Shown here: positions 14,585-61,062 of the stretch, piece by piece
How positions within the stretch are numbered: the stretch's first letter is position 1
Layout of the letters: each line of letters starts with the position of its first letter
DNA from: an uncultured virus (IMG/VR IMGVR_UViG_3300000154_000005)
Taxonomy: Duplodnaviria; Heunggongvirae; Uroviricota; Caudoviricetes
Reading direction: 5' to 3' (one strand)
DNA: 64,000 nucleotides
IMG/VR virus record: IMGVR_UViG_3300000154_000005
Position numbers and translations under genes: made by a program
Notes under the pieces: generated by a model
What the model saw: the letters and a program-made list of their open reading frames with translations, nothing else
Databases searched by the model: none
Told to the model about the DNA's origin: nothing

Positions 14585-14942
14585 TGGTGGAGGTGGCGGG
14601 AATCGAACCCGCGTCCAGAATAACTATTTAATTAATCAGGATATACGACTATTTTGCTAGTATTATAGTCTAAAGAACCTAGCAATCCTCTTCGACTCAT
14701 GTACCGTCATGATGCACGATGCCCTTTTGATTAACTGGCGGCTATTATCCAGCTTGTATTTGGTCTTACGACCTTCTGTTGCCACGCCCGGACGGGCGCC
14801 GTTTACTCTTTACTGTTTAAGCAGCGAGAGCAACAGGTGCGTAGAATTCATCATTGGCACCTAAAGTTTTAGCCTGTTACGGTAGCACTATACCGAGTCG
14901 CCTAATCATCGTTCACTACCCTGTCGAAACCAGTACACCCCC
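14585..14942 (-). ncRNA. ssrA: tmRNA, tag (A)ANDEFYAPVALAA
   Basis: 5' GGGGGUG pairs with CACCUCC-ACCA, giving G3.U70; T-arm GGGTTCGATTCCC; tag frame 14858-14817. Confidence 0.96.
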
Positions 14943-15191: not shown

Positions 15192-15764
15192 TTACTCACA
15201 AAACCTACAACTAGTGCCACATTTTAACCATTCTTCAGAACCTTCAGCATAACCATCAATTACATTTTTATCTTTATATGAAGGTACTTTATAAGTATGA
15301 CATAAAACATTCATACATCGTTCACAAGAAGTTGCATATATTATGATTGCATCCCCCAATGAATAATCACCACTATTAGCTATTGCCAACACAGCATCAG
15401 AAGACCAAGAGGATTCGAATCCTATATGGGGATGACAAGATCCGGAATCCCATTCACTTTCCCATTCTTCTTGCCATTCTTTTACTTGTGTTCCACCACA
15501 TAATTTACATTCTCTTCCTACAGAACCTTCAACCCATCCACCAGTTGGTCTGATTTCTTTTTTAGGATGCATACAGTCACGTACTTTTTCATTAGGAACT
15601 ATATACAATGAAGATTCTCTTAATATATTAGAAAATCTAGAAAACTGATAACAAAATCCTCTAGGCGGATCAGGTAATCCTTGCTCTTCTGGGTCTTGAA
15701 ACCATTTCTCTCCATCTTCATTTTCATACCAAATATTTACTAAATGTTCTTTTTTGATTTTCAT
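15192..15764 (-). CDS. Cys-rich hypothetical protein
   Basis: Several CxxC pairs. Confidence 0.6.
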   Translation of the reverse strand: MKIKKEHLVNIWYENEDGEKWFQDPEEQGLPDPPRGFCYQFSRFSNILRESSLYIVPNEKVRDCMHPKKEIRPTGGWVEGSVGRECKLCGGTQVKEWQEEWESEWDSGSCHPHIGFESSWSSDAVLAIANSGDYSLGDAIIIYATSCERCMNVLCHTYKVPSYKDKNVIDGYAEGSEEWLKCGTSCRFCE

Positions 15765-16045
15765 TTTATTCTCAATTTATGTCTCAGAAGTTCTATATCG
15801 AATTTTTTATTATCTTTTCCAATATATTGATGCATATTTTTTGTAGACCATTCAGTCATAATACGATATTCTTCTGTTTCTATATTAAAATGTTTAATAT
15901 ATGGGAGTGGGCCAGTATTACTATGAGCGAATAATGGATTTAAATGAAATGAGTGATATTTATTTAGTGTTATTTCTATATTATCATCTAAATCCATATT
16001 ATTTAATATATACTTACAAGTATCAAAGAATTCAAAAAAAGTCAT
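15761..16045 (-). CDS. Hypothetical protein with the [KR]Lxxx tail (paralog of 16383, 16673)
   Basis: F.EF..TC..I N-terminus; ends ELLRHKLRIK. Confidence 0.65.
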   Translation of the reverse strand: MTFFEFFDTCKYILNNMDLDDNIEITLNKYHSFHLNPLFAHSNTGPLPYIKHFNIETEEYRIMTEWSTKNMHQYIGKDNKKFDIELLRHKLRIK

Positions 16046-16386
16046 AGTGTTCTATATACAAATGTTTTCAACCCTTTATTTTTAGCATCATAGATCATAT
16101 GTTTAGTACCTCTACTTTTACCATCCCATACTGCGATTAAAGCATCAGAATAGTCCGCCATTTGACTATTCCTAATTGGCCCTGCTTTCCGACCATAGTG
16201 ATCCCAATTAGCAGGAAATTGACGTACAAGTACACCATTTTCTCTTGCCCATCGCTCACCAAGAGAATCGACACCTTTAGCCATACCACTAACAACTTCA
16301 GTAATAAACCATCCGGCACCATTTACTGCTTTATATATAGTACCAAGATTAGTAATTGTACGACTTCCAGCTATAATAGTTTTCAT
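16042..16386 (-). CDS. SLOG-family (YspA/DUF2493-like) protein
   Basis: IIAGSR, VVSGMAKGVD, AGPIRNSQM, WDGKSRGTKHMI. Confidence 0.85.
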   Translation of the reverse strand: MKTIIAGSRTITNLGTIYKAVNGAGWFITEVVSGMAKGVDSLGERWARENGVLVRQFPANWDHYGRKAGPIRNSQMADYSDALIAVWDGKSRGTKHMIYDAKNKGLKTFVYRTL

Positions 16387-16676
16387 GATAACTCCAATTT
16401 CTTTTTTAACAACTCATTATATATGTCATTTATTTTATCAGCATTATCTAATATATATCCATAAACACTCTGATAGCATCCAGTAGTAGTATCTTCTATA
16501 CATATTTGGGTTAAAATCTCTTTAATACAAACAGCTGGATAAGTGCCCCACATAGTAGAATGTGCAGAATCGACATATATAGCATGTTTTTCATTTAAAG
16601 GAATAATCATATGTTTTGGATATTTAATCTTTGTGAATATAAAATCACATACTTCCTGAAATTCAAACTGAGTCAT
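16383..16676 (-). CDS. Hypothetical protein with the [KR]Lxxx tail
   Basis: Ends YNELLKKKLELS. Confidence 0.65.
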   Translation of the reverse strand: MTQFEFQEVCDFIFTKIKYPKHMIIPLNEKHAIYVDSAHSTMWGTYPAVCIKEILTQICIEDTTTGCYQSVYGYILDNADKINDIYNELLKKKLELS

Positions 16677-16972
16677 AACCTCTCCAGTTTGTATTTTACT
16701 AACTCATTTGTAAGAGATGGAGTTAGTAACTCTTTCTCTATTAACCAATTATAAATATCCACATACCCATGAATATTAAACACTTGATATAGTTTCCTAT
16801 ATCTATTCCAATATCTAATATAAGGAAACGGGACAGCTCCACCTCTCATATATAGAGTGCTTAATTTTAAATCATATTTATCCGATAATGGAATATGTAT
16901 TTCATTATTATCAATAGGATGTGGATTCATCATTATAAAATGACAAGTATTTTGAAACTGTTCTAATATCAC
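16673..16972 (-). CDS. Hypothetical protein with the [KR]Lxxx tail
   Basis: Ends TNELVKYKLERL. Confidence 0.65.
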   Translation of the reverse strand: MILEQFQNTCHFIMMNPHPIDNNEIHIPLSDKYDLKLSTLYMRGGAVPFPYIRYWNRYRKLYQVFNIHGYVDIYNWLIEKELLTPSLTNELVKYKLERL

Positions 16973-17550
16973 AATACCCCAGACTTAGCTAAATCAATCA
17001 CATCTTTCATATCCATTCCTTGCTTCGTCATCATTAGAATAGTCATAGGATCGACTTTTTTTGAATCAGCTAAGAGTTTTTCAGCTTCTTTCTTAATCGC
17101 TTCTTTCATTACACTATCAAAATTATCTTTTACGGCCGCCATTTCAGTTCTAATAACCTCTTGAATTTCTTCTTTCGATTGAACATGAGTAAGAGTACTT
17201 TCTACTCTATCTAGATTTTTCTGTACTACACTTAGATCATTTCTTAATTTAGATATTGATGAATTAAAATCTTTTGTGTCAGAAGCAACGTCTTCAAAAT
17301 CAGATGTTAATGTATTAATAGATGCGTCGATACTTGATAATTCTTCTTGTTGAGAGTCTAGTATGTCTTTTTTAATTGCTTCAGAAACAGAATTATATAA
17401 TCCAATTGGGTATTCAGTTGTTGAATTTAGATTAAAGAATACAAGTGTATCCCCAGATTTAAATAGTTTATTTGTATATTTAGTTGGATATGTGTAATCG
17501 CCATTTTCTTGCTTTTCCATAGATGGCATTTGAAATAGTTGTTCGATCAT
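16969..17550 (-). CDS. Coiled-coil hypothetical protein
   Basis: Heptad pattern in the central part; GGGAG ribosome binding site. Confidence 0.6.
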   Translation of the reverse strand: MIEQLFQMPSMEKQENGDYTYPTKYTNKLFKSGDTLVFFNLNSTTEYPIGLYNSVSEAIKKDILDSQQEELSSIDASINTLTSDFEDVASDTKDFNSSISKLRNDLSVVQKNLDRVESTLTHVQSKEEIQEVIRTEMAAVKDNFDSVMKEAIKKEAEKLLADSKKVDPMTILMMTKQGMDMKDVIDLAKSGVL

Positions 17551-17576
17551 TAATTCTGCTCCCGTGAATGTATTAT

Positions 17577-17813
17577 CTAACCATTTTCAATTATCTTAAT
17601 AATCGAATCTGAAGATAGATAAATTTGAATTTTATTATTTTGTAATACATGTTCAACTGTGCAATTAAAGTCCCCACTATCTGTGAGGTGACCATCTTTT
17701 AATCGATAGCCTTGTTCTGGTGTATATCCAGTATGTTCCAATAAGAAGTGGAAGAACCCATCATTTTCAGGTGGATTCTTCTCTTCTGAAACAATTTGAA
17801 ATGGATTAAGCAA
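17577..17813 (-). CDS. Hypothetical protein
   Basis: AGGAG ribosome binding site with TTG start; promoter motif at about 17852-17865. Confidence 0.55.
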   Translation of the reverse strand: MLNPFQIVSEEKNPPENDGFFHFLLEHTGYTPEQGYRLKDGHLTDSGDFNCTVEHVLQNNKIQIYLSSDSIIKIIENG

Positions 17814-17875
17814 AGTATTAGTTCTCCTATTTATTGACGGTTCTATAGATTATAATATCTATATATAATAATCAA

Positions 17876-22157: not shown

Positions 22158-23312
22158 TTACTGTTGTAATATTTCTAATGTAAAACATTCAGTATGCCCA
22201 CCAAAATGAATAATAGGTTCATATTTTAAATGTTTATATTTTTCTTTTTCCTCTTGCTCTTTACAAAATGCGTCATATAGACTCATATACTCTTCTTTTA
22301 AAATTTCTACTGTATATGGAATAGAATAACTTCTATTTTTAGATGAATTTTGAATAGTAATACCTTTCTTAATAAATTTCTCATTCTTATTACTAAGTAA
22401 AAACATATAGTAAATAGCCGGTTTATTTTTTAGTTCTAGGTTATTTTCTAATAATGAATAAGTATATACCCCTGGATTATTTTCTGTTCCACATATAGGA
22501 CAACCAGCACCATTAATATGACTGGCATATGTTTGATAAAAATTGCCATGGTTTAAATTAACTAAACATTGAATTTTTATTTTCGTATGAGCATTAATAT
22601 ATTTAACATTACTATAGTCATATTTATCACCATGAACTTGTCGACATCTGTAGATCACATCTTTCTGAGATAAAGCTAAAGCACTTCTGGTCTTTTCGTA
22701 ACCACATTTAGGACACCCTCCATTAGGTATATGATTAGCATATGTTTGCTTAAATACCCCATGTTCTGGATTAATTAAACATCCAATACTCATTTTTGTA
22801 TGCGAATCTTTATAAACTGATTTACTATAATCATATTTATTACCATGTGTATTAATACATCGTTTAATTACTTCTTCTTGAGTCAATATTAATATTTTTC
22901 CATGTTGATTTTTTGCGCATAATGGGCAACCAGAACCTTTAATATGGCTAGCATGTGTTTGTGTGAACTCTCCATGTATTTTACATATTATAATTATTTT
23001 CCGATAAGCAGAATCTTTATAAATTGATTTACTATAATCATATTTATCACCATGAATATCTTTACATTGTGCTATTGCAACATCTTGTGATAGGGTACGA
23101 TATTTAGAAGATTTTTCTTTCCCACAATAGTAACAACCAGTTTTGCTATAGAAGTGTTTATTATATGTTTGTTGAAACTCTCCATGTATTCTACATATAA
23201 TTATTAGTTTTTTATGGCTACCTTTATAAACTACTTTACTATAATCATATTTATCACCATGAACTTGTTTACATCTATAAATTACCTCTTCTTGGGATAA
23301 TATGGGAGACAT
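22158..23312 (-). CDS. Free-standing homing endonuclease-like protein (four DUF723-like Zn repeats plus a GIY-YIG-like domain)
   Basis: Four HGDKYDYS..C..HG.F.QT..GCPxC repeats; C-terminal domain similar to 7345-8067. Confidence 0.8.
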   Translation of the reverse strand: MSPILSQEEVIYRCKQVHGDKYDYSKVVYKGSHKKLIIICRIHGEFQQTYNKHFYSKTGCYYCGKEKSSKYRTLSQDVAIAQCKDIHGDKYDYSKSIYKDSAYRKIIIICKIHGEFTQTHASHIKGSGCPLCAKNQHGKILILTQEEVIKRCINTHGNKYDYSKSVYKDSHTKMSIGCLINPEHGVFKQTYANHIPNGGCPKCGYEKTRSALALSQKDVIYRCRQVHGDKYDYSNVKYINAHTKIKIQCLVNLNHGNFYQTYASHINGAGCPICGTENNPGVYTYSLLENNLELKNKPAIYYMFLLSNKNEKFIKKGITIQNSSKNRSYSIPYTVEILKEEYMSLYDAFCKEQEEKEKYKHLKYEPIIHFGGHTECFTLEILQQ

Positions 23313-29722: not shown

Positions 29723-29802
29723 ATGTTATTACTCCCATTACTTTTTAGAAAAAGAAAACTGCTCTTTGGACTTTATTATATCTATATATTATAGATGAAA
29801 AC

Positions 29803-30774: not shown

Positions 30775-31170
30775 TTATTCAGCCTCATATGCATTATGAT
30801 CCTGCCTACTTGCCATCCTATGGTTTGAGATATCTTGTATGAATTTTGAATTATATTTTTCAATCTTATATGCAAATCGCCCACCAAAGTAAACGACAGC
30901 TTCACTACTCATATGGCTAGTTATAACGACGGTTACTGCATTCGTCATAGCAGAACCACCAAGGCCACCAAATCCAAGAGCGGTACTTCCCCAAGTCTGA
31001 GGAAAACTATATACATCTATTTCACAATCTTCTAAAAACTTAGATCGTTCAGGTCCATCTGACTTCTGAGTTACTCTATTCCATTCATTATAAACAACTT
31101 TAGACAAATGGACATATTTTGCCTGTTCAATTGACTTAGATATTTCTGAAATGTAACTATTTATATGCAT
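30775..31170 (-). CDS. Phage hypothetical protein
   Basis: ORF in chain; FPQTWGSTALGFGG segment. Confidence 0.6.
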   Translation of the reverse strand: MHINSYISEISKSIEQAKYVHLSKVVYNEWNRVTQKSDGPERSKFLEDCEIDVYSFPQTWGSTALGFGGLGGSAMTNAVTVVITSHMSSEAVVYFGGRFAYKIEKYNSKFIQDISNHRMASRQDHNAYEAE

Positions 31171-31622
31171 TATTTTACTCCTGTTGATCCAAAACCATCT
31201 TCGCCTCGATTAGTATCTTCTAATGATTTAACTATATTCCATATAATACCGTTAACTGGAGTTAATACTAATTGTGCAATCCGATCTCCATGCTTAACCA
31301 CAAAAGGTTCAATATTATTATTATGATTCATTAAAATAACTCCAATATTACCTCTGTAATTAGAATCAATGGTACCTGGGGTATTAAGAACTGTGATACC
31401 TTCTTTATATGCTAATCCACTACGAGGACGGACCTGGATCTCATAGCCTTCTGGAATAGCTACACTTAGGCCAGTATCAATTAATAATCGTTCTCCTGAT
31501 ATAATCTGAACTGGTCCATTTGGTAAATTTGCTCGTACATCAATGCCACTATCTCCAATTTTTGAATATTGAGGTAATTCATTACTACTTGCATTTACTA
31601 TTTTGACTATTTGATTAATCAT
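31170..31622 (-). CDS. dut: dUTPase
   Basis: SGIDV, RPRSGLA, GTIDSNYRG, RIAQL, RGEDGFGSTG. Confidence 0.97.
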   Translation of the reverse strand: MINQIVKIVNASSNELPQYSKIGDSGIDVRANLPNGPVQIISGERLLIDTGLSVAIPEGYEIQVRPRSGLAYKEGITVLNTPGTIDSNYRGNIGVILMNHNNNIEPFVVKHGDRIAQLVLTPVNGIIWNIVKSLEDTNRGEDGFGSTGVK

Positions 31623-31695
31623 AACTACTCCTGAAAATAAAACCTATTAAATTAATAATAGGTCTAAGTTTAACTGTATTTTAGTTTTAAGCTCT

Positions 31696-34600
31696 TCATA
31701 ATAATAACAATTTCTGTCTTAATAAATCTTTAACTATTTTATCTTTATCCATGCTTTCAAGTATTATATAAATAGATGGTGAGTATAGATTATATTTTCG
31801 TGCTAAATTAGACCAGAATATATAAGATTCACCAGGTGATAATCCAGCATTTATATCCCCATATAGATCAAGAAGATCTTGATAGTTCATGCATTTTCCA
31901 ATTTAAATCTTAAGAATTCTTTAATTATATAATCAAAATATGGTGTTAATATTAGATTATCCCAATCATCTGAATTATCCGGTTCTTTTAAGTTTAACTT
32001 CTTAAACAACTTACTTTTAAATATATGCCATTTTCTATCTCCATATTCAAAAGAATCATATATACTAATTCGAAACTCAAAAAATTCTTTAGGCGTCATA
32101 TTAATTCCAGTTATGAGTATAATAGTTTAAATTGAAGTAACCTCTGAATCACTTGTTCTTTTTTTGGGTTCTGTATTATCTGATCTGTTGGTAAATAATC
32201 ATAATCAGACCAGATATTATAATCCCTTCTAAGTTCTTCATCTAATTCATCCAAAACCTCTATTGAAATAGTAACTCGATTTAAAATCCAAAATATTAAT
32301 TTATCAAGCTCTTTTATTGAAATATTCATAATTGCCCTAATCTAAATTTTAATAAATCCTTGATTATCTTATTTTTTTCTGTATGGCTACATATTTGTTC
32401 TATTGGAAAATATATATTATCATCCCAAATACCATAAACATTGTTTAAATAGGTTTCAAGATCTTGTAGCCCCGAACCACCTTTAAAATTTTCATAGATA
32501 GTTCTTATTAAATTTTCAATATCTAAGTTAGTCAAGATAGGCTCAATTTAAACTTCACTATTTTATTATATACTTCTTTAAATTGAGGGGAACCATATAA
32601 TTCGACCCATCTTTCATCTCCATATAATGAGAATCTGATTTTTGGATAATCAGTTTCTAGATTTTTTACGAACCTACACCAATTAAGATAGTGTGTTGAT
32701 TTTCGAATAACACTAATTTGAAGCATAAATTCATTAAATGTCATAATAAACTCAATTTAAATTTCAACATATCATTAACTATTTTAGATACTTCACAGTG
32801 ATCATATATCTGATCAGCTGGAAAGAATAATTCATAGTCCCATATACCATATTTCGTTTGTAGATACAAATCAAAATCTTTAAGTTCGGTATCTCCTTTA
32901 AAATTCTGACATATATCCAATCCTAATTTTCTAATTTCATCATATGTCATAACAATTCCAATTTCTTTTTATTTAAATACTGAATTATTTGTTTCATATT
33001 ACCAGAAGCTTTAAAATCATCAATAAGATATCTATCAACCATAAAAGTTACTCCATATTCCCATTGAATATATTCTAAAACCTCCAACCATTTTTTATCA
33101 CCATCTCCATCAAACGAGAAATCCCACAATGCGCTAGAAATATTATGTATCAATTTATTAATCTCTTGATCACTTATATTCACTACTCTAACTCCAACTT
33201 AGCCTTTAACATATGATTATATATCTTTTTAAATATTGGAGAATCTGGTACACTATTAATTGAATATGGGCGAGTAATATTATAATAAATAGCCATATTT
33301 TTCCAAAATATATTCCAATGACTGGTGCCTTTATTTATCCTATTAAGATGACTAGCTCTCTTATAAAAAGAATCGCATAATTGTTCCCAATCTTTTCGAC
33401 TTGGAGTGGTCATGATCTCAATAACCTCATTCGTCTTAATTCATTAACAATATATTTAAAATTTTTATTTTCCCTAAATGAACTACTCCAGTTCTTATTG
33501 TTAAATATTATATTATACTCATCACTAATACGAGGAAGAAAAAATCGCCAATCATCTTCATCAATATCCATTATTAGATCTATCATTTCTTCGTCTGAAA
33601 CATACATTATATCTCCGATAATCTTATACGCATTAGTTCATTAATAATAAGTTTAAAATCCTTACTTTCCATAAATGAACTACTCCATGAATGGCCATTC
33701 CATTCAACATCATAGATAATATGAGCATCTGAGATAAACCTATACCATTTAGGAAAAGATATATCATCTATTAAATCTTTAATTTCTTCAGATGATATAT
33801 CCATTAAATCCTCTCTAATTTAACTTTTAACATATCTTGAATAAACAAATCTTTTTTACTGCTATTATATAATGAAGTACTTCTATCTCTACCATCCATT
33901 ATATAAGTTGCGACTGCCATATGCAGTTCATCATCATATTTATATTTAGGAGTCCAATTATGAACAGCACTAGCATGTTTATAGAACATATTTTTGAATT
34001 CTTGAAGAGTTACGAGTGCAGGAGTTTCCATCTTAGTATATCCTTAATAATTGATTCACGATGATGAGAGTTCCAGATTAGTTCACTGTATGGTGGTTTA
34101 GTATATGTAATATTATATTGTTTGAATAGTTCGAAGATATATGAATGCCAATCCCTACCACTTGGAATTGTCATTATTAATTTTTCAAGTTTCTTTTCCG
34201 ACATATGATTCATGAGTGTAGAAGTTTCCATCTTAATATATCACTAATTACTTTTTCTTTATATTTCTACCAGAGGGTTCTCATGGCAAAACTATAGCTA
34301 TTCTTTTTTTCAATATAGTCTGGGGCAGCATCGAGGTCCCCAGAGAATATAAACTCAGCATCGTGAAATGGACCTTTTTCTTCAAACATTTCATCAAAGA
34401 AATCATTAAGAACCAAATCAAGTATATTATCATTTTTAACAGTGAATCCGAAAACATAGTTCTCATCATTAACCTTTTCTATGAAAATTTTAGAGTCTTT
34501 AAATCGTTCATCGGTTTCAATTAATCGTGTAGCAATAATTCTGAACATCCTTACCTGTTCTTCAGCGTTTTGAGGTTCAAACGATTCGTGTTTCATGAGT

Positions 34601-35200
34601 GTAGAAGTTTCCATCTGTTTATATCCCTAATTAGTTTTTCTTTATGAATAGATTTATAAATTTCAAAACTATAAGCCCCAGTGCCTTGAATATTATAAAT
34701 TTTAAACAATCCACATATATAATCATGCCATTCTTCATAATTTGTATCTGTAATTGGTAAATTTATAATTAGATTAGCAATTTCTAATTCAGTCATTAAC
34801 ATACTTCTAATTTTAAACGCAATAACTCTTTATGAATTAATTCATGATCTGGACTTTTTGATAACGCCTCTATCCAAGTAGTGCTATCTCTATCAACTTC
34901 ATAATTATCTACAATATAATCAGTAAATTCCGCCCACCTTTCAGATTTAACAATTTTTAGTACATCAAAAACATCTTCAGCAGTCATTGACTTATCTCCA
35001 ACCTATTATGAATATCTTAGTTTTAGCTTTAATAGAGCAGTACTAATATCCTTGATATCTGGACTCTCTGCAAGAGTTTGAGACCAAGTAGTATAGTCAT
35101 CTGATATATCATACTTATAATGCACAGTCTTAATGAATTCCTGCCACTCTTCACTTGGTATCAAACATACTATTTTATATATTTCAGATCTGGTTAGCAT
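31696..35200 (-). repeat. Tandem array of 16 small related CDSs with a shared C-terminal motif
   Basis: ORFs ending at 31696, 31887, 32111, 32326, 32532, 32741, 32947, 33183, 33410, 33607, 33804, 34010, 34267, 34593, 34796, 35006; mostly overlapping stop/start; promoter motif at about 35232. Confidence 0.85.
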
Positions 35201-35252
35201 CGATTATCTCCCAATATTGCCGTTAAACTCTATTATATCTATATCAAATAAA

Positions 35253-36545
35253 CTATAAATTAAATCTTAAACATTGCCATTTAGCTGAATGTTTCATAAT
35301 AGTCTCTCTTGGGTTCTCTTTTGAAAAGATATTAACTATACTAATCGGAATATATTTTAAATCAAAAGGAACATGTAAGTCAAAGGCATATATTCTATCG
35401 AATTGTAAATAATCAGGGTGACAATCATCATTCTGAAAATCATACACATCCTGAACTTCTTCTCTTACAAATTTAGACATATTTGAAAACCTAGTCATAG
35501 CATTATCAGATTTATGAAGACCAGTAGGGTCTGAGGAATAAATAGAAAATTGTTTAGTTGTGGGCACGGTAACTGATGAGTGAGTGGCTTCAACAGCATT
35601 AATTTTTCTATCTTCATTTATAGAAGATGGTGTTACTTTTGATTTAGTTTTAGGAACTGATGGATCATTACCTTTATATTTTTTAAAGAATGTTTCATAA
35701 TTAGTAGCGATCATAGTTGCATCATTTTCAAGCAATGAATCAAAAACATCTTGAATTGGAGTAATACCGACTTCTTTGGACCCCATTTGAAAATCAGCAA
35801 CACCATCTGAAAATACATTAGCTTTATTAAATTCTGGTAAATTATTAAATGAAATAAAGATTCCACAAATATCAGAACTATTATCATCTGTTATTCTAAA
35901 GTCATCCCAGAAGTAATAAGCAAAGTGATCGATAACCTTAAAGTTGGATTGGAGAAGGGTAGGAATGGTGAGATCATTCTTAGATCTAACCATTATCTGT
36001 TCGTGTATTTTAGTATTAAAGGTAGATACTCCAATCTTATGATCAAAACTAATATCTCCATACTGACTCATAAATCCTTCAAATTCTTTTAGGGCATCTA
36101 ATGAATTAGAATTTTCGATTATCTTATTAAAACTATTAACAGTGGATAAATAGAACAATACAGGATTAGTTAAATACATAGTACAATTCATTAATTGATT
36201 TTCTGCACCTACCTTTTCCCTTGATTCAATATATAATATCTTATATGTTTTTCTAGTTATTAATTTATCATCTTTACGTTCCCGAGTATCGAGGCCATCT
36301 TTTAATTTATTTAGTAATGTTATTGTTAATGTTAACTGTAAGTCTTCGCCTTTTTTTAATGTATCGCTTATATTTAAGAAATTACCAGTAGGTAACGGCA
36401 AAGTTACAGTAGCGAAACTGGCATATTTAACCAATGGAGTCCGATATACATAAAAAGTATTAACATCCTTCGTTACCATTTCTTGTCCATTGAGTAACAT
36501 TTTTAACTCTATACTATAATTATTTGGCGGTGTTGCTGCTGCCAT
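35253..36545 (-). CDS. Hypothetical protein (possibly virion structural)
   Basis: 430 aa ORF with AAGGA ribosome binding site; no motif recognised. Confidence 0.6.
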   Translation of the reverse strand: MAAATPPNNYSIELKMLLNGQEMVTKDVNTFYVYRTPLVKYASFATVTLPLPTGNFLNISDTLKKGEDLQLTLTITLLNKLKDGLDTRERKDDKLITRKTYKILYIESREKVGAENQLMNCTMYLTNPVLFYLSTVNSFNKIIENSNSLDALKEFEGFMSQYGDISFDHKIGVSTFNTKIHEQIMVRSKNDLTIPTLLQSNFKVIDHFAYYFWDDFRITDDNSSDICGIFISFNNLPEFNKANVFSDGVADFQMGSKEVGITPIQDVFDSLLENDATMIATNYETFFKKYKGNDPSVPKTKSKVTPSSINEDRKINAVEATHSSVTVPTTKQFSIYSSDPTGLHKSDNAMTRFSNMSKFVREEVQDVYDFQNDDCHPDYLQFDRIYAFDLHVPFDLKYIPISIVNIFSKENPRETIMKHSAKWQCLRFNL

Positions 36546-36611
36546 TTGTTATTTCCTTAATAAATAAAACATGGCGGTTAAGCCATGCTTAAAAGTTTTC
36601 GGTTTGCATTA

Positions 36612-36857
36612 TTAAATAATATTTAAAATAAGTTTTTGTAATTTATGTTTAATTTTAGGAGGCAAACCGTATAAGTTTAGTGCTTTTTGATAAGCTTCTT
36701 TAAGTGTTGACCCATCTGTTTCATATATAATTTCATCTTTATTATTTTTAATATAGACAATCACATATGATTCCATTCCACCACAATAGCCACCATCTTT
36801 AGTTATATTAGTTATATATGATCTAATACTTTCTTTATATTCATGTATTATATTCAT
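36612..36857 (-). CDS. Hypothetical protein
   Basis: TAATG-coupled to the ligase; ends KHKLQKLILNII. Confidence 0.55.
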   Translation of the reverse strand: MNIIHEYKESIRSYITNITKDGGYCGGMESYVIVYIKNNKDEIIYETDGSTLKEAYQKALNLYGLPPKIKHKLQKLILNII

Positions 36858-38650
36858 TACAATTCTAGAAATTCTTCAATTGTTAGAATTGGAATGCCTC
36901 TCTTCTGAGCTTTATCCAATTTAGAGGTTTGTTCACCAGATGATACTAAGTACGTTAATTTACTTGTCACACTAGCTACTACATTCAATCCTTTAGTATC
37001 GGCGATTGATTTATAGAATGACTTCTTTTGAGGAAGACTTCCACTAAAACATATAGTTTTTCTAGTATCGGCTGCTGTTAATTTAGTATTAACTACACTC
37101 ATCAATCCATATAGTTCACCGATTAGTTCAGAATTTTCTTCTAACCCTTTAATTAAGGTATAACTTCTTTCAAAACTAAAGTTTGGTTGCATTTCTAATT
37201 CTTCAAGAGATAAATTTGTCAATTCACTAAACGTCATTTTAGAGAATAATTGTTTAGCTAAAGTCTTACCTATACCTTTAATATTTAAACTTGCCAAAAT
37301 CTTCCAATCTTCCACTTTCTTAATAACTAACTGAATATTATCATATAATGTATTGGCAGATGTCTCAGCAAAGCCGTCAAGGGTTAATATATCCTCATAT
37401 TCTAATGATAGTATATCTGCTAATGATTTAACTTCTAAGTCATCTACCATCTTCTGAATTGTAGGTTCGCCTAGTTCTTCTATAGAAACTGTCTTTACTG
37501 CATGTACTAGTTGTCGTACGAGAGAGCCACCACAATCTAAATTCAAGCAGTATAATTCTGGCTCTTGATAGTCTAAAGCGCCATCGCAGTTAGGACAATT
37601 ATCAATCTTAATTGGAACCCTATTATCTCCCGGTTCTATACTATCAACATGTGGAATAACATCACCATGTCTTGATACATATGCAATATCTCCAATATGG
37701 AGATTAAAGTCGATGACTCGTTTAGCATTATGTAAAGTTGGACTTTCAATAGTAACTCCATTAACAACAATAGGATCTATAACGGCTACAGGTGTTAGTT
37801 TTCTAGTTCGTCCAACTTGCCATTTAATATCTCTAACAATAGTACGTTTACTATTATCATTAAATTTAAAAGCAATCGATCCTCGAGGATGATGGGATGT
37901 GACTCCAAGAGATTCATGATACTGTTCATCTGTAACTCGAATAACTACCCCATCTAAAGGATAATCAGAGTCTTTAAATCGCTCAACTATAGTTTCCCAA
38001 TTCTTCTCTAAATATTGATATTCCGTTGATATTTCAAACTTCTTATAATCAACCATTGTTAATTTTACAATACCAATTAATTCTGCTGTATCTTTTCTAG
38101 CAGGAGTCATTATACCTGCTGCCATATTCCGTTCAGTTTTAAATGGTTCACCGCTCTTGCGGGTTGCTTTAGTATTTTTAAATTCAGATTTTTTTACTAA
38201 TACTTCTCCAATTATATCAGTAGAAGCAGCATCTTGATCTGATTCAAGATCAATAAGTGGTAATTTATGAGTTACATTCTCTCCATGTAATCCATCTCTA
38301 CCTCTAGTGACTAATAATTGTTTCTTATGATAATATGTACTAGCAATACCATCGAACTTTGGAGAAAGACTAAATTTTTCTTTTGGAGACCTAATAATTT
38401 TACTCCCCCATTTAAGTATCTCTTCTAGACTAAATGCTTTATCAAGAGATAGCATCATTTTAGGGTGTTTAATAGTGTCTCCTACCGCAATAGGTCCATC
38501 AACATCTACTACTAAATAATTAGTTGGATCGATACTTTTTAATTGGTTTATTAAGGAATCATATTCAATATCTGTTATTTCTGGGTTGTTATCTTCCCAG
38601 TATAATCTATTATGATATTTAATAGCCTCCTGCAGCTGTTCTTTATTCAT
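36857..38650 (-). CDS. ligA: NAD-dependent DNA ligase
   Basis: MLSLDK, KFDG adenylation site, DGVVIR, C4 Zn finger, HhH, C-terminal BRCT. Confidence 0.96.
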   Translation of the reverse strand: MNKEQLQEAIKYHNRLYWEDNNPEITDIEYDSLINQLKSIDPTNYLVVDVDGPIAVGDTIKHPKMMLSLDKAFSLEEILKWGSKIIRSPKEKFSLSPKFDGIASTYYHKKQLLVTRGRDGLHGENVTHKLPLIDLESDQDAASTDIIGEVLVKKSEFKNTKATRKSGEPFKTERNMAAGIMTPARKDTAELIGIVKLTMVDYKKFEISTEYQYLEKNWETIVERFKDSDYPLDGVVIRVTDEQYHESLGVTSHHPRGSIAFKFNDNSKRTIVRDIKWQVGRTRKLTPVAVIDPIVVNGVTIESPTLHNAKRVIDFNLHIGDIAYVSRHGDVIPHVDSIEPGDNRVPIKIDNCPNCDGALDYQEPELYCLNLDCGGSLVRQLVHAVKTVSIEELGEPTIQKMVDDLEVKSLADILSLEYEDILTLDGFAETSANTLYDNIQLVIKKVEDWKILASLNIKGIGKTLAKQLFSKMTFSELTNLSLEELEMQPNFSFERSYTLIKGLEENSELIGELYGLMSVVNTKLTAADTRKTICFSGSLPQKKSFYKSIADTKGLNVVASVTSKLTYLVSSGEQTSKLDKAQKRGIPILTIEEFLEL

Positions 38651-39027
38651 TACACCTCTTTTAGTTTATTATATATGATTTCAGCTTCAATTCGATTTGA
38701 TTGCCGTCTAAAATCATCAGTAACAAGGGTTGTTAATTTATGACGGGCTAGCTTATTACATAATTTATTAAAGTCTTTAGTTTCAAATATTTTTGTTTTG
38801 CGGCTACTACAAAACACAATAGTATAAAGAATGTCAACATACGTATTGTAATATATTCCATTAATATTTATATTTTCAGCCCGTCTACTTATATTAATAA
38901 AAATATTTTTTTTAGGTTTAGATATAAGATCAAAATAAGCGGGTCCACTACCGTAATAATTTGTATTATTATGTTCTTTGAATCTTTCAATTTGAGTTAT
39001 AAGTTCTTGTCGTAATCGAGTAGACAT
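38650..39027 (-). CDS. Hypothetical protein with a KLxxx tail
   Basis: Ends IIYNKLKEV; coupled to ligA. Confidence 0.55.
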   Translation of the reverse strand: MSTRLRQELITQIERFKEHNNTNYYGSGPAYFDLISKPKKNIFINISRRAENININGIYYNTYVDILYTIVFCSSRKTKIFETKDFNKLCNKLARHKLTTLVTDDFRRQSNRIEAEIIYNKLKEV

Positions 39028-41401: not shown

Positions 41402-42481
41402 TTATTCTTCCTTATTTAAGTATTCCCATTTAAACCCGCCGGCTGTTTTAATTTTTTTTGTTAAACAATTCGTAATTGTTGATATATTTAGTTCTTTTTT
41501 AGCTTTAGTTTGTGAACACCATGTTTTAATTATTTTTCCAGTTTTTAAATCTATTTGATTAATAGGCTTATTTGTTGTTCTTCTAGATAATTTAACCGGG
41601 GTTTCTGTATCAAAACAAAAGCCAAACCCTCTGCTTGATTTTCTTTTATTATTACAAATATTTGATATATTAGATACTGGTATTTTTAAGATATCTTCTA
41701 TCTGGGTCATTGAATCCCATACTTTAATTACTTCTAATGTTTTTAAATTGTACTGCTTAATTTTTCTTATTTTATTATTACTATATATTATAGGGGAGTC
41801 ATTAATATGACACCATCCAAATCCACCGGCCGATTTAATTTGTCCATTGACACATGATGAAATATTAGTAATCTTTAAAAGATCTCTTGCTTCGATAATA
41901 GAATCCCATACTTTAATTACTTCTAATGTTTTTAAATCATACTGTTTAACTTTTGTTAAACATAAATTAGTATATATGGGTGGGGCATCATCAATAAAAC
42001 ACCACCCATATCCACCACATGATTTAAAGTCTTCTGGATTTCTACAACAAGCAGATATATTAACTCTGTTATTATTAGTTTCTATAGATGCTTCTGTTAT
42101 CGATTTAAATATTTTAATTATTTTACCGGTCTTTAAATCATATTGTTTAACTTGTTTTGTATTTGCACCAGAAGAACCTTCTCCACCAAGAGTCATATTA
42201 TATCCATTACTATCTTCAAAATTAACATAAGTACGGAATCTTAATATTTCATCTTGTTCTATCTCTAATAATTCTTTTTCCGTTACTAATCCTGTATAGT
42301 CATAAATTTTAAAGTCGAAATTATCTATACCATATTTACGAATGGCTCTATGGAAAATACAATCAGATCCATTATTAACATCTTCCATATGTCTTTGTTT
42401 CCGTTTTTCAACAGATCCGATTGTTTTCCCTATATATTGTTTGCCATTTATTCTATTTATAAATTTATATATAATTCTCAT
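41402..42481 (-). CDS. Free-standing GIY-YIG homing endonuclease with NUMOD1 repeats
   Basis: IIYKFINRINGKQYIGKT, GYNMTLGGEG, four VKQYDLKT..SITEA..SAGGFxW-type repeats. Confidence 0.9.
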   Translation of the reverse strand: MRIIYKFINRINGKQYIGKTIGSVEKRKQRHMEDVNNGSDCIFHRAIRKYGIDNFDFKIYDYTGLVTEKELLEIEQDEILRFRTYVNFEDSNGYNMTLGGEGSSGANTKQVKQYDLKTGKIIKIFKSITEASIETNNNRVNISACCRNPEDFKSCGGYGWCFIDDAPPIYTNLCLTKVKQYDLKTLEVIKVWDSIIEARDLLKITNISSCVNGQIKSAGGFGWCHINDSPIIYSNNKIRKIKQYNLKTLEVIKVWDSMTQIEDILKIPVSNISNICNNKRKSSRGFGFCFDTETPVKLSRRTTNKPINQIDLKTGKIIKTWCSQTKAKKELNISTITNCLTKKIKTAGGFKWEYLNKEE

Positions 42482-43958: not shown

Positions 43959-44143
43959 TCATCCCTCATTGAAGTATAAAATTCGCATAATCCATTCCAT
44001 TTAACAATAGGAGTTGTAGGTGGTTCTACAACACACACATAATCAAGAGTCATTGCTAGCATATAATTATTACAATTACTACAACAATTCGAAAGTTCAA
44101 TATCTATGATTCTATAAGAATCTAACCTTTTATTTTTCATCAT
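43955..44143 (-). CDS. Small Cys-rich hypothetical protein
   Basis: CSNC..C..C pattern like 4551-4772. Confidence 0.5.
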   Translation of the reverse strand: MMKNKRLDSYRIIDIELSNCCSNCNNYMLAMTLDYVCVVEPPTTPIVKWNGLCEFYTSMRDE

Positions 44144-44414
44144 CTTCCCTTTGACAAGCTTCTATAAATCCAAGATCCATACTGACTAAATTTACTCTCT
44201 GTGGTCCAAATTCCCAACACATATACCCAAACCACTTATATGAGGGAGCGTTTTTAACAGTATTCCATTTCATTTTTAATATTACAGGGTCTTTATAATT
44301 AGTTAAGTATATATCCTCTAATATTTCTATATTGGGTTTAGAGACACCTAAATAATATAAGATAAAATTTCGGGTAGCCCTCATTTGAGGCCTATATGTT
44401 CTAGTTCTCATCAT
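44130..44414 (-). CDS. Hypothetical protein, paralog of 44411-44698
   Basis: RNFIL..GV..IE.L.DIY..LKMKWNT shared. Confidence 0.6.
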   Translation of the reverse strand: MMRTRTYRPQMRATRNFILYYLGVSKPNIEILEDIYLTNYKDPVILKMKWNTVKNAPSYKWFGYMCWEFGPQRVNLVSMDLGFIEACQREDDEK

Positions 44415-44698
44415 ATGGGTCCAGACAGTATCATAGGCATTATGCCTGGTGAATCACTAATAGAGTTATACCAATCATAACTTATTCGAGGTTTAATAGT
44501 ATTCCACTTCATTTTTAGAAGGTCTAGATCATACTCTGTTCGATATATATCTTGCAGTACTTCAATATCTTCAGAATTAACTCCACAACAACGAAGTATG
44601 AAATTCCGACATCTTTTTTGTGTAAGTGTTGTATATCTCATTGGCATTATACTAGATTTATCTACCTCTGTTACATATACACCTGGAGTAATTTCCAT
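44411..44698 (-). CDS. Hypothetical protein with a tail-sheath-like N-terminal peptide
   Basis: Starts MEITPGVYVTEVDKS; rest is paralogous to 44130-44414. Confidence 0.55.
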   Translation of the reverse strand: MEITPGVYVTEVDKSSIMPMRYTTLTQKRCRNFILRCCGVNSEDIEVLQDIYRTEYDLDLLKMKWNTIKPRISYDWYNSISDSPGIMPMILSGPI

Positions 44699-46459: not shown

Positions 46460-46768
46460 TTAATTTAACTCCAATAATTGTTTAGTAATTTTATTCTTAT
46501 ATTTAGATGATTCAATATGAGGAGATACCCCTTTAATAACAAGTATTTTATCTGCATTATTATGGATTCTATAAATAACTTCTGTTAATATACCATATAT
46601 CATACTATCTCCAGTTCCATATAAACAATTATCAATAGATTCACGTATTTCCCGGACAGACATTCTTTGTATCATAGCTTTATATATTCCATTATTTCGC
46701 CCAGACGGGGTACTATAAATTAATATTCTACCATTCGCTTGTACTTTAAAACCGCCTATTTCTAACAT
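46460..46768 (-). CDS. Hypothetical protein
   Basis: Ends KNKITKQLLELN, tail shared with the neighbour. Confidence 0.55.
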   Translation of the reverse strand: MLEIGGFKVQANGRILIYSTPSGRNNGIYKAMIQRMSVREIRESIDNCLYGTGDSMIYGILTEVIYRIHNNADKILVIKGVSPHIESSKYKNKITKQLLELN

Positions 46769-47089
46769 TTAATTTAACTCCAATAATTCTCTAGTTATTT
46801 CATTTTTAAAATTAGACTCGGATTCAGTTTCTAGTAATACTGTTAATATCTGTTTTTTTATAACTTGATCCAATACTGGGCCATTTCTCTTTAATGATTT
46901 ATACATAGGATAACCATTAATATCAATCATTGAACATATTAATCCAATACCAACAAGATGAGTATTTGGAATATATATTGTTTTCCCTTTAATTTCTAAA
47001 GTATAATCATTATTTTCAGAAGTACCTTCGACCGAAGCCGAAGGCATTTCATCAAGGCTCAATAGATCAGAATGATCACATTTTGCCAT
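46769..47089 (-). CDS. Hypothetical protein
   Basis: Ends KNEITRELLELN. Confidence 0.55.
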   Translation of the reverse strand: MAKCDHSDLLSLDEMPSASVEGTSENNDYTLEIKGKTIYIPNTHLVGIGLICSMIDINGYPMYKSLKRNGPVLDQVIKKQILTVLLETESESNFKNEITRELLELN

Positions 47090-48281
47090 ACAACCCTTCT
47101 TTTAGTGACTCGTGAAGATTTGCAACATTATGCATTTGTCCATCATATTCAATTTCTTCATCACCAGATAATTCAACAGTTGAACCATCTTCAAGATTAA
47201 ATCTATATTTCTGCTTTGCTAATTCATCTTTCTTTACTAATACGCCTACTTGACCACCGTCAGGATTATGTCTATATGCTGCTAATCCTTTAAGTCCTTG
47301 TTCGTAAGCATACATATATAAATCTTGAAATTTCTCATATGGATAATCAGTAGGGATATTTACAGTTTTACTGATACTTGAATCAATCCATCGTTGAGCT
47401 GCGGCTTGCATATCAATATGTTCTTTTGGAGAAACATCATGCGCAGCTACAAAGTAATCAGGTAATCCATTAGCAATAATATCTTCAATCTTATTATCTA
47501 CTACTGTATGGGGGTTATCAGTATTATCTAGAAATTCTTTATATTTTAGAATTTCATAACTATAAACATCTACCATATCTTTAGTATTTTTACCTTCTTT
47601 AATAATATTACGTTGATAATAATGACTAAATGATGGTTCAATTCCATTACTGCAATTATTAAAGAAACTTAAACTAATAGTACCTGTTGGTGCAATACTA
47701 GTAGCATGACTAAATCTACAACCATATGCTCCAATATCATCTACTAACTGTTTTGGAAAATCTTTAAAATACTTCGAAGATGCCATAAGCCAACTACCTT
47801 TAACTTCCCCTTCTTTTGGAGAACTTAAACTAATATAGTCAGAATCCATACCAGCTTCTTCTAAACGATTTTCAATTTCAAAATTAATTGGAAATGTTTC
47901 AAGTAAAATAGGAGCAGCACCTTTTTCTTTTGCTAATTCAACACCAGTTTCATAACTTTGAATTGCCATAATCTTAGTTATTTTTTCTGTGAATTTAATA
48001 GCAGTTGGTGAGCCATATTTAGTTTTTAACATACATAGTGTACTTCCAAGTCCAGCAATACCCAGACCATGTCTGCGTTTTCTATATAGTTCTTTCTGTT
48101 GCTCATCTAATGGGAGTCCATTAATTTCAACAACATTATCTAAGAATCTTGTAGCAATAGCGATGACTTTCTTAAACTTTTCACTATCAAATTGCGGATT
48201 AATACTAAATGGGTTATTAACAAAATGAGTTAAATTAATAGAGCCAAGTAAGCATGCTCCATGGGCGGGTAAACCTTGTTC
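47076..48281 (-). CDS. nrdJ: Class II (B12-dependent) ribonucleotide reductase NrdJa, exon 2
   Basis: EQGLP..ACLLGSINL, RRHGLG, SIAPTGTIS, DSSISKTVN. Confidence 0.93.
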   Translation of the reverse strand, partial: EQGLPAHGACLLGSINLTHFVNNPFSINPQFDSEKFKKVIAIATRFLDNVVEINGLPLDEQQKELYRKRRHGLGIAGLGSTLCMLKTKYGSPTAIKFTEKITKIMAIQSYETGVELAKEKGAAPILLETFPINFEIENRLEEAGMDSDYISLSSPKEGEVKGSWLMASSKYFKDFPKQLVDDIGAYGCRFSHATSIAPTGTISLSFFNNCSNGIEPSFSHYYQRNIIKEGKNTKDMVDVYSYEILKYKEFLDNTDNPHTVVDNKIEDIIANGLPDYFVAAHDVSPKEHIDMQAAAQRWIDSSISKTVNIPTDYPYEKFQDLYMYAYEQGLKGLAAYRHNPDGGQVGVLVKKDELAKQKYRFNLEDGSTVELSGDEEIEYDGQMHNVANLHESLKEGLYGKM

Positions 48282-49141
48282 CAAAATGTTAACTTCTTAT
48301 TTCTAAGAAGATCGGACTATATCATCAATATGTGAATATTCTATCACATAATGTTCTGCATTCGGTAATGACATATCAACATATAATTTCGTTTTATAAT
48401 ATAGACGAGTCTTGTATTTGAAATCATCCAATATATAAGGATACACCAAAGACATAAATCTTTGTAAATGTGGTCCCATAAAACGAACTCTGTATCCATG
48501 TCCCCATGGTACTTTTATAAGTGTTGAATGGATATTAAATAAATTTAAACGATTAACTAATAATTCTAATTCTGGAATTGTAAAACTCTCTAAACAGAGA
48601 ATACCATTATTTTGAATAGTATTTTTTACTCTGTTTTTTGTATGTTTCAACGTACCATCTCCCATCCATATATGGGCAAATGCTTGCGCATCTAATCTAT
48701 TACAGATGTATGGAGTAAGTGTTTTTTTCCCATTTGGGTAAAAGATCTTGCGTAGTTTTCGAAAATAAGGATGTTTATTTGTATTGTTTAATTGATGCCC
48801 AGTAGTACTGTAATTTTTATAAAATCGTTTAGTAATACTTGAATTCACACCAGTTATTTGATCCAATACACTCTTTGTATAATCAACATATTCTTTTGAT
48901 TTATTTCCAAACCCAAATCTTTGTTCTTTTATAATATACCCATCAGATACTAAAATACCTAAAATTATTTTTTTAATCTGTTTTGATGTTAGTATTTCCA
49001 TTGGAATTACTTTCCTTTAAATTGATGTCATTACCTGTAGTCTCTGAACCTTCCTACTATTAATTAGGTTTGGCTGCTGATTACCAGTTAAGGCTTCCAG
49101 CAATTAACAGAATTTTTTAACGTGAGGCAAACAATTTACCT
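48282..49141 (-). mobile_element. Group I intron in nrdJa
   Basis: P1 GGU|..GCC; conserved AATTGCTGGAA, AATCAGCAG, TTCAGAGACTAC and GATATAGTCC segments; terminal G; splicing restores NPCG|EQ. Confidence 0.93.
48303..49001 (-). CDS. Intron-encoded LAGLIDADG homing endonuclease
   Basis: Two motifs: ILGILVSDG and FAHIWMGDG. Confidence 0.88.
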   Translation of the reverse strand: MEILTSKQIKKIILGILVSDGYIIKEQRFGFGNKSKEYVDYTKSVLDQITGVNSSITKRFYKNYSTTGHQLNNTNKHPYFRKLRKIFYPNGKKTLTPYICNRLDAQAFAHIWMGDGTLKHTKNRVKNTIQNNGILCLESFTIPELELLVNRLNLFNIHSTLIKVPWGHGYRVRFMGPHLQRFMSLVYPYILDDFKYKTRLYYKTKLYVDMSLPNAEHYVIEYSHIDDIVRSS

Positions 49142-50188
49142 ACCACACGGGTTAGTTGCTCTAATAAGTTCAGCCCACCATAGATTATTCTTATCATTAT
49201 ATTCGTCAATTAGAATAAATCCGGGATCTCCATAATCATAAGTAGATTTCATTATCTTATTATATAAATCTCGGGCTTTAACAGTTTTATATACCCTGCA
49301 AATAGCTTCTCTTTTATTTTCAGGTTCAGGAGATTCATAATATAGATGATTTTTATCGTATATTGGCCATTCTTTAGCAATAGTCTTTACTTTAGTCGGA
49401 TCCTCAGCCTTAGACATTGGAAAATATAAATCCCAATCAGCATCATCTTTAACTGCTTCCATAAAATCTTTAGTAATAAGAATGGAAATATTGAACTTGC
49501 GAAGACGACCATCTTCACGTTTAACATTAATAACTTCTTCAATATCAGGATGTGAAATTGAAAACGTCATCATCTGAGCTCCACGTCTACCGCCGGCGCT
49601 ACTAATCGTCCGACACATCGCCTCAAATATGTCGCTAAAACTCAAAGGTCCGGAGGTACTTGCCCCCACACCATTAACCATCGCACCTTTTGGGCGAAGG
49701 GTACTAAATTCATAACCGATTCCGGCACCACTTTTCAGTGTAAGTGCTGCTTGATTCAATACTTTAAAGATACCCTCCATACTATCAGGCATAGTATCTG
49801 AAACTGTGCAATTAATTAGACTTGTCCCTGGTTTATATTCTTCGGCTCCAGCATTAGCCATGATACGACCAGCGCCAAGTAGTCCATTATTTAGTGCCCA
49901 GTTAAATTGTCCTTCCCAGAATGTTACTAAATCAAAATCTCCTTCAGATTTTTTACATCCATTAGGACATGGTACATCTGGAGGTTCTGGGGCTATTAAT
50001 GGCTTTACACATACGCCTGAACCAAAGCATATATTACATTTTACTGGCATATTAACTTCTACACTAGCGACTGCTTTAGCCACTCGTCTAAATGTATCAT
50101 TTACATCTTTATCAACTTGATTTCCATGTAAATCTTTTAATTGATATTTTTGTTCATAAATAACTTTGGATGCATCTTGTAATTTCAA
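49142..50188 (-). CDS. nrdJ: Class II ribonucleotide reductase NrdJa, exon 1
   Basis: AGRIMANAG, SLINCTV, GAGIGYEFSTLRPKG, GGRRGAQM, ATNPCG. Confidence 0.93.
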
Positions 50189-61058: not shown

Positions 61059-61062
61059 TTGT

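Follow-up and report, generated by a model that had tools for sequence, protein, structure and literature searches.

The DNA analysed here is a 64,000-nucleotide (nt) stretch from an uncultured virus of the Caudoviricetes (IMG/VR record IMGVR_UViG_3300000154_000005), to which we refer as the window, and our subject is an array of very small genes that it carries. On the minus strand, between positions 35200 and 31696, the list of open reading frames (ORFs) of the window contains a run of 16 consecutive ORFs, g01 to g16 (Table 1). Fifteen of them encode paralogous proteins of 63-78 amino acids (aa); the exception, g04, encodes a 115-aa protein with a different end and an unrelated sequence. Neighbouring genes overlap by 1-22 nt at 12 of the 15 junctions (the overlaps have the form ATGA, TAATG, TAGTG or TTGA, or are 22 nt long), and at the other three they are separated by gaps of 18, 35 and 11 nt. 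All 15 small proteins could be aligned over their full length, and a profile of the family, run against the 1110 six-frame ORFs of the window, recovered every one of them with E values between 4e-16 and 5e-25 over positions 1-68 of the hidden Markov model, so the homology is real, extends over the whole length and is not due to chance. The ORF list, the profile and the 12 overlapping junctions bear out an initial annotation of the locus, made from the letters alone, which had described 16 mostly translationally coupled ORFs, 15 of them of 63-78 aa.

The most conspicuous feature of the family is its C-terminal tail, with the consensus I-[IVY]-x-[DE]-[LMI]-L-[RK]-x-[KR]-L-x-x-x-stop. The [KR]-L-x-x-x-stop end is present in all 15 array proteins, in all ten relatives found in metagenomes and in all four longer paralogs encoded elsewhere in the window (29/29), exactly the spacing of three residues after [KR]L that had been reported for the array. 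In an alignment of 25 sequences (the 15 array members and the ten metagenome relatives) column 85 is Leu and column 84 Lys or Arg in 25/25, column 82 is Arg or Lys in 24/25 and column 79 Asp or Glu in 18/25. Across the 29 proteins the first residue of the basic pair is R/K in 28 and the second K/R in 29, and 27 end in a small or hydrophobic residue. Among the 105 pairs of window paralogs the mean identity is 41.9% in tail columns 76-85 versus 19.6% in the body, and the tail is the most conserved of 46 sliding windows. The [KR]Lxxx-stop end occurs in 22 of the 111 ORFs of the window (P 2e-21, at a dipeptide frequency of 0.0108). We rejected the idea of a proteome-wide signal: outside the family the end was found in 4 of 93 ORFs versus 1.0 expected (P 0.018), and among these four are a pair attributable to a Shine-Dalgarno sequence (SD) and a doubtful ORF. 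It was also observed that two overlapping plus-strand ORFs (63479-63730 and 63652-63978), which lie at the end of the otherwise almost wholly minus-strand window, are paralogs of each other ending in ..FEDPSQELINYVKLM[DE]S, also [KR]L followed by three residues.

The contrast between a constant tail and variable bodies, as it had been drawn in the initial annotation, holds in so far as the tail has about twice the identity of the body, but the bodies are themselves homologous and have a conserved core. Core positions are conserved along the whole 25-sequence alignment (e.g. a Tyr in 23/25 and a Trp in 16/25), and paralog-specific bodies are kept in the relatives, thus the bodies cannot be called hypervariable. 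Three marine-metagenome DNA runs, each of which contains the complete stretch, showed no variant letters within the array; these were compared as contigs only and belong to one study, which is possibly the source of the window.

The AlphaFold2 model of g03, calculated from the 25-sequence alignment, is a compact four-helix bundle (predicted local distance difference test, pLDDT, 96.2; predicted template modelling score 0.82) with helices at residues 3-11, 20-33, 42-48 and 52-66 of 67. The tail is helix 4, which is, jointly with helix 2, the longest. The tail is thus an integral part of the predicted domain and not a free peptide, contrary to the earlier picture of a separate docking appendage. 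In a helical wheel the hydrophobic positions -12, -8, -5 and -1, together with -11, -7, -3 and 0, span ~200 degrees; Ile or Leu occupies -12, -8, -7 and -3, and hydrophobic residues stand at -5 and -1. The Lys/Arg at -4 falls between hydrophobic positions, and the Arg/Lys at -6 and the Asp/Glu at -9 lie on the polar side. Such a pattern suggests a helix that is buried on two sides. One position of helix 1 is Glu or Asp in 21/25 members, and this conserved Glu could pair with the Arg/Lys of the tail.

Table 1. The array, its flanking signals and the longer family members of the window.
Feature	Positions	Strand	Length (aa)	C-terminal end	Remarks
Promoter motif	35232..35244	-			exact match to ATATAGATATAAT, 32 nt upstream of g01
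g01	35006..35200	-	64	..ALLKLKLRYS	profile E 4.4e-21
g02	34796..34987	-	63	..ELLRLKLEVC	profile E 4.8e-20
g03	34593..34802	-	67-69	..DINRWKLLHS	likely start 34796; = P0009; AlphaFold2-modelled member
g04	34267..34614	-	115		acidic ORFan, pI (isoelectric point) 4.46, unrelated body; insert in array
Tail remnant behind g04	34210..34266	-		KYKEKVISDILRWKLLHS-stop	in frame after the TAG of g04
g05	34010..34231	-	67-73	..DILRWKLLHS	profile E 1.6e-22
g06	33804..34031	-	75	..DMLKVKLERI	22-nt overlap with g05; profile E 3.8e-16
g07	33607..33804	-	65	..ELMRIRLSEI	profile match
g08	33410..33607	-	65	..ELRRMRLLRS	profile match
g09	33183..33413	-	76	..HMLKAKLELE	pairs with P0024; ends in TAG
g10	32947..33183	-	78	..YLNKKKLELL	pairs with P0016
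g11	32741..32950	-	69	..DMLKFKLSLL	profile E 5e-25
g12	32532..32744	-	70	..KIVKFKLSLS	pairs with P0021
g13	32326..32535	-	69	..DLLKFRLGQL	TTG start
g14	32111..32329	-	72	..RLLQFKLLYS	starred clade with P0015
g15	31887..32099	-	70	..EFLRFKLENA	profile match
g16	31696..31890	-	64	..DLLRQKLLLL	last gene of the array
Hairpin	31640..31665	-			10-pair A/U-rich stem, 2 G-C pairs, then U-run
L1	16673..16972	-	99	..NELVKYKLERL	tail pattern/profile
L2	16383..16676	-	97	..NELLKKKLELS	profile E 3.4e-4
L3	15761..16045	-	94	..ELLRHKLRIK	tail pattern/profile
L4	406..666	-	86	..KQLLRARLLAT	tail pattern/profile

An exhaustive profile search of 1.84 billion representative proteins (E 1e-3 or better) returned 26 proteins. 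Fourteen of these come from the window itself or represent a near-identical variant (six identified by sequence, the rest by length) and ten are metagenome proteins of 64-74 aa with the same tail. The remaining two, P0022 (an 804-aa repeat protein with eight weak stretches, in which Pfam gave scattered sub-threshold rows only) and P0026 (3793 aa), are partial matches that we regard as spurious sums over helical repeats. Among the variants, P0014, from a public protein collection, is a 63-aa version of g02 with two substitutions (Trp to Arg and Ser to Arg), which shows that closely related strains of the phage exist. The ten metagenome relatives, all singletons, come from contigs of 2.1-6.2 kb, and the equal size of the longest contig shared by several of them suggests that relatives have arrays, too. 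In a maximum-likelihood tree window and metagenome members interleave, with ten label changes and no clustering. Three one-to-one pairs are starred (g12/P0021, g09/P0024 and g10/P0016), as is one mixed clade (g11, g13, g14, P0015 and P0019), and in seven window/metagenome pairs the identity is 34-51% in the body and 38-69% in the tail. The one-to-one pairing implies that the expansion predates the split of the phages and that every copy was retained under a constraint of its own; the conservation of each individual copy between phages argues for fifteen non-redundant jobs.

Other ways of finding relatives yielded little. Scans of viral, metagenome and genome contigs with the relatives or with neighbour genes gave nothing or false positives, such as a eukaryote-like ORF sharing the string YHDILRKKL (L001) and a locus without a family match (L002), both of which were rejected. 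With blastn, region 31000-37000 matched GenBank phages in the dUTPase gene only, tblastn of two neighbour genes gave no match, and word-index protein searches returned nothing beyond the proteins of the query itself. We judged a BLAST link of g09 with a piece of RNA polymerase (RNAP; 45% identity over 31 aa, 28.5 bits) to be chance.

The longer relatives L1 to L4 were recognized by their tails or by the profile. In an hhalign comparison of the long and the short subfamilies only the last 22 columns could be aligned (probability 59.6%, E 8.9e-5). The N-terminal MT..EF helix, the L..KY.h motif and the tail follow in the same order in both subfamilies, and because of these further shared motifs the longer relatives look like diverged members of the family with a sheet insertion. 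The AlphaFold2 model of the long subfamily (pLDDT 85.8, from four sequences only) consists of a helix, four strands, a helix and a tail helix at 85-98. Near L4 there is a gene for an Hsp20/alpha-crystallin protein (1405-1839, minus strand; Pfam PF00011, E 1.9e-19).

The odd member of the array, g04, matched only itself in a BLAST-type protein search. It is flanked by a 57-nt direct repeat, whose copy at 34206-34262, to which the tail remnant behind g04 belongs, is 89% identical to 34589-34645, the end of g03, and the repeated tail junction also supplies the first seven codons of g04. This bracketing by tail-junction repeats identifies g04 as a fairly recent foreign insert. We considered and rejected read-through of its TAG codon into the tail remnant: the window has no suppressor tRNA, and TAG also ends g09.

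The window contains 27 copies of a 13-nt motif (ATATAGATATWAT) at one mismatch or fewer, as compared with 4.0 expected (0 of 100 shuffles reach 27), and the copies lie mostly in intergenic gaps upstream of minus-strand genes. An exact copy precedes the array and none is found inside it, in agreement with the earlier proposal of one promoter at about 35232. A scan for sigma-70 promoters showed no enrichment in the window (31 found versus 42.8 expected). According to the review PMC7598289, all RNAP-encoding jumbo phages possess an AT-rich motif (~10 nt) that is conserved upstream of operons presumed to be early; wherever transcripts were profiled, this motif proved to be the early promoter, and it was attributed to the virion polymerase. 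By analogy, the motif in front of g01 is probably an early (virion RNA polymerase) promoter and the array an early operon. The hairpin that had been taken for the end of the array does have a stem and a U-run, but it is weak (segment z-score -0.96) and the terminator scan made no call there; it is possible that it acts as a leaky terminator ahead of the dUTPase gene. Since no promoter motif was found between the hairpin and 29775-29787, transcription may continue into the dUTPase gene and the two genes following it. A metatranscriptome run of the study to which the three DNA runs belong contained three short contigs that match the array without mismatches (32040-32275, 33589-33739 and 33837-34081), which is weakly compatible with transcription of the array.

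A few exact copies of the promoter motif also exist on the plus strand (12587-12599 and 63328-63340), and one of them stands just upstream of the gene for a 1441-aa RNAP protein, pointing away from it. A second minus-strand operon (15192-17864) lies behind a copy of the same motif at 17852-17864. It encodes a 78-aa ORF, a 193-aa coiled-coil protein, three of the long family members, a Cys-rich protein of 190 aa and a YspA/cpYpsA-related SLOG protein (16042-16386; Pfam PF10686, E 3.7e-13).

The interpretation we favour, to which we give about an even chance, is that the array represents an old, lineage-specific family of small cytoplasmic proteins, in which the tail is the spine of the fold and which serve as early-expressed mini-binders. 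The injected virion RNA polymerase would read the array early as one polycistronic RNA, maybe on into the dUTPase gene, and translational coupling would give similar amounts of each protein. The conservation of the tail would be due mainly to its place as hydrophobic spine within the fold, with a possible bridge from its Arg/Lys pair to the conserved helix-1 Glu, and the fixed number of residues after the Leu would result from the end of the helix combined with the locked stop/start and the Shine-Dalgarno geometry of the next cistron. The surfaces, diverged among the copies (the net charge of the bodies ranges from -8 to +5) but each kept between phages, would allow each copy to bind a different target in the infected cell, as part of host takeover or of counter-defence.

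Several points must be noted that weigh against this interpretation. No homologue of known function was found for the family at the thresholds of Pfam, PHROGs and NCBIfam. It is by analogy that the promoter is classed as early, the synteny of the relatives is deduced only from equal-sized longest contigs, and the metatranscriptome contigs are strandless and could derive from DNA carry-over. Burial of the tail is read from the sequence pattern and from confidence values only, and both the basic pair and the C-terminal length are kept more strictly than a core helix would usually require and would fit a shared interface equally well.

An interface of this kind was at the centre of the model put forward in the initial annotation, in which a variable body binds the target and a constant C-terminal helix docks on one common partner (candidates are a phage or host polymerase, a protease or a chaperone). 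We consider this model unlikely, although several features of the tail would suit it: among the paralogs it has twice the conservation of the body, its conserved residues include charged and probably exposed ones, and both its distance from the C-terminus (29/29) and the nature of the last residue (27/29) are constrained. The same tail also ends proteins whose body is built differently, with a four-stranded sheet, and the hhalign match of the long subfamily covers nothing but the tail; however, the motifs that the two subfamilies share in the same order make the long proteins look like diverged members rather than recipients of a transplanted tail, and AlphaFold2 integrates the tail helix into a compact domain in both. 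Similarly, the remnant behind the unrelated g04 is in frame, but it is cut off by the TAG codon, with no suppressor among the four tRNAs. The analysis found no common partner.

In a further scheme, which we find quite unlikely, the N-terminal helix and the basic C-terminal helix would form a constant two-helix clamp that holds variable inserts (two helices in 15 copies and, in the other four, a four-stranded sheet with a helix) and docks 19 or more early proteins on one hub, either in the infected cell or in the phage's own transcription machinery. The array would then be a scaffold-display library of effectors, and the tail junctions would double as homology for the swapping of cassettes, as g04 might illustrate.

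It is also conceivable, with a probability that we judge to be low, that the paralogs assemble with each other, the N- and C-terminal helices serving as subunit interface in a mixed oligomer or lattice for which the coupled operon supplies near-equal amounts of subunits. The wide hydrophobic arc of the tail (~200 degrees) and the weak match of the tail profile to the coiled-coil neck of DC-SIGNR (E 1.3e-4) would be consistent with such an interface, but the AlphaFold2 model is that of a confident monomer. Coupling at 12 of the 15 junctions fits as well, but coupling is common among unrelated genes of phage operons.

We assign a similarly low probability to the possibility that the proteins are nucleic-acid-binding regulators, in which the basic last helix (R-x-K) would be the recognition helix and the paralogs would read different sites. 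The basic pair is conserved, and the order of helix 42-48, a 3-residue turn and helix 52-66 resembles a helix-turn-helix; nevertheless, the isoelectric point is below 6 in 15/25 members and the bodies carry net charges down to -8. A sub-threshold match to Pfam Mor (E 0.053) was obtained with one member only, out of 25. A precedent is the ~35-copy zinc ribbon of phage G, for which a role as transcription factors is proposed in PMC7824862.

The last alternative explains the conservation of the tail by its DNA alone, which would act as ribosome-binding site and start region for the following cistron or provide homology for recombination, and gives the peptide itself no role. The Shine-Dalgarno sequence of the next gene does sit within tail codons at most junctions of the array, and at g03/g04, remnant/g05 and g05/g06 the R-W codons of RWKLLHS contain the next start and the K/R-D codons the SD; the 57-nt repeats around g04 are likewise made of junction sequence. 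A strong SD (-5.6 kcal/mol or better) precedes g04, g06, g07, g08, g09 and g10, but the SD is weak or absent at nine junctions, among them those before g11-g16 (-1.9 to -3.4 kcal/mol; random 22-mers average -2.06) and before g03 and g05, where it is absent. The tail is retained in g01, g14 and g16, which have no overlapping or close downstream start, and its conservation extends over at least 13 residues, well past any SD. At the fixed tail positions of the 19 window members Leu is encoded by all six of its codons and Lys/Arg by four, which places the conservation at the protein level, and the metagenome relatives keep the pattern at the protein level, too. Upstream of the 86 non-family starts of the window stands the usual G-rich SD at -13 to -8, without AAA-YTR. 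That coupling can shape a C-terminus is nevertheless illustrated within the window by two otherwise unrelated proteins of ~125 aa (38650-39027 and 60819-61184, minus strand), which have in common only their last 12 residues, E.E..Y.KLKEV; the shared KLKEV end is encoded by AAACTAAAAGARGT, the ribosome-binding site just before the next start. Coupling thus partly shapes the last few tail codons and helps to lock the position of the stop, but as a full explanation, which the initial annotation had itself named among the findings that would refute its model, the DNA-level account is largely refuted, and we see next to no chance for it.

Small tandem gene pairs were also noted on the minus strand within 44130-44698 and 46460-47089. 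The genes 44130-44414 and 44411-44698 are paralogs by BLAST, and the genes ending at 46769 and 46460 have an identical junction, aattattggagttaaattaa, before the next start.

Comparison with databases did not connect the family to anything known. None of the 16 array ORFs had a PHROGs match below E 0.004, and the four long members and the ten relatives had none at E 0.01 or better; in Pfam nothing rose above the gathering threshold, NCBIfam gave no match for the family, and our literature searches found no description of it. Thus the possibility that the family had already been characterised, raised at the outset, received no support from these sources. Searches of the PDB and fold comparisons revealed no match to a known family, the long-subfamily model faring no better, and in the Protein Atlas there was no usable match for g03, while L1 reached scores of 0.76 or less. 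The PDB profile search gave two partial similarities, the DC-SIGNR neck mentioned above, which involves a short part only, and troponin C (E 0.009-0.05), which is limited to profile positions 2-31. In EF-hand pairs each four-helix domain has two canonical Ca-binding loops of 12 residues, each placed between two helices; we rejected this assignment, because in the family the loop between helices 1 and 2 varies by up to 17 columns and the second loop has three residues, and the VIA list contained no EF-hand chains. No helix-turn-helix protein stood out in the structure comparisons. Death-fold domains (CARD, PYD and the bacterial death-like domains) are six-helix bundles of ~90 residues. Sliding-clamp-binding C-terminal motifs of the QL[SD]LF type begin with Gln and form an extended, unstructured C-terminal peptide; this possibility was also discarded, as the residue before the invariant Leu is Lys or Arg in 29/29 and the peptide is predicted to be helical with high confidence.

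The proteins of the window are found on a contig of 284,614 bp, and the virus is an uncultured marine jumbo phage that encodes multisubunit RNA polymerases of its own; the GC content is ~30%. Five ORFs of the window match PHROGs of phage RNA polymerase beta/beta' subunits, in two sets, and for the large RNAP gene the closest cultured phages are only 22-33% identical. The window also encodes a dUTPase (31170-31622), an NAD ligase, a split ribonucleotide reductase, homing endonucleases and four tRNAs (Arg, Asp, Thr and Met), none of which is a suppressor. The large subunit of ribonucleotide reductase (47076-50188, minus strand) is divided into 49136-50188 and 47076-48284, and a LAGLIDADG homing endonuclease gene (48303-49001) separates the halves. 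Pieces of RNAP genes adjoin genes of HNH and GIY-YIG-type endonucleases (22158-23312 and 41402-42481). No group I intron was detected in the window above Rfam thresholds. A transfer-messenger RNA was identified at 14585-14942 (minus strand) by ARAGORN and by Rfam (RF00023, 114.6 bits); its tag peptide is ANDEFYAPVALAA.

A large part of jumbo phage genomes is given over to small early proteins, among which tandem families of paralogs are recurrent and unexplained. The array described here is a well-documented new family of this kind to which no database match assigns a function, and it should be a tractable one: the proteins are tiny, their structures are predicted with high confidence, and the shared basic helix can be cleanly mutated or removed. 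If it is true that the copies bind different host proteins, the array would offer a collection of mini-binders made by nature in a marine lineage without cultured members; a partner common to the copies would, in turn, be a hub of the infection.

It is instructive to compare the array with other collections of small viral proteins. The internal proteins of phage T4 have a common capsid-targeting sequence, which is N-terminal, unstructured and cleaved. As a short terminal peptide on differing small proteins it is an analogue of the docking-tail idea, whereas the array proteins have their conserved part at the C-terminus, as a predicted core helix. The host-takeover module of Bacillus phage SPO1 consists of many small early genes with early promoters and translational coupling, most of them mutually unrelated. 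The array is, similarly, an operon of many small, coupled genes, early by analogy, but 15 of its 16 genes belong to one family. The multigene families (MGF) of African swine fever virus (ASFV) and the host-range families of poxviruses are tandem sets of strongly diverged paralogs with individually kept orthologues and presumed roles in host interaction. The array shares with these the tandem, diverged paralogs that are each kept between related viruses; it belongs to a bacterial virus, its proteins are much smaller, and no relation in sequence or fold has been shown. Parallels are found in other jumbo phages: published papers describe arrays comprising over 30 genes of high similarity in phages G and 121Q (Hua et al. 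2017, PMC5646251) and the ~35-copy zinc ribbon of phage G, proposed to consist of transcription factors (Iyer et al. 2021, PMC7824862). As far as those descriptions go, the arrays agree in residing in a jumbo phage, in the head-to-tail repetition of a small gene and in their restriction to a lineage, and they differ in that ours is built from a separate protein family, has fewer copies (15 + 4 in the window), which at ~20% body identity are far more diverged than those described for G and 121Q, and belongs to an uncultured marine RNAP-encoding lineage. The family is new, but as a kind, small-paralog tandem arrays are already known from jumbo phages.

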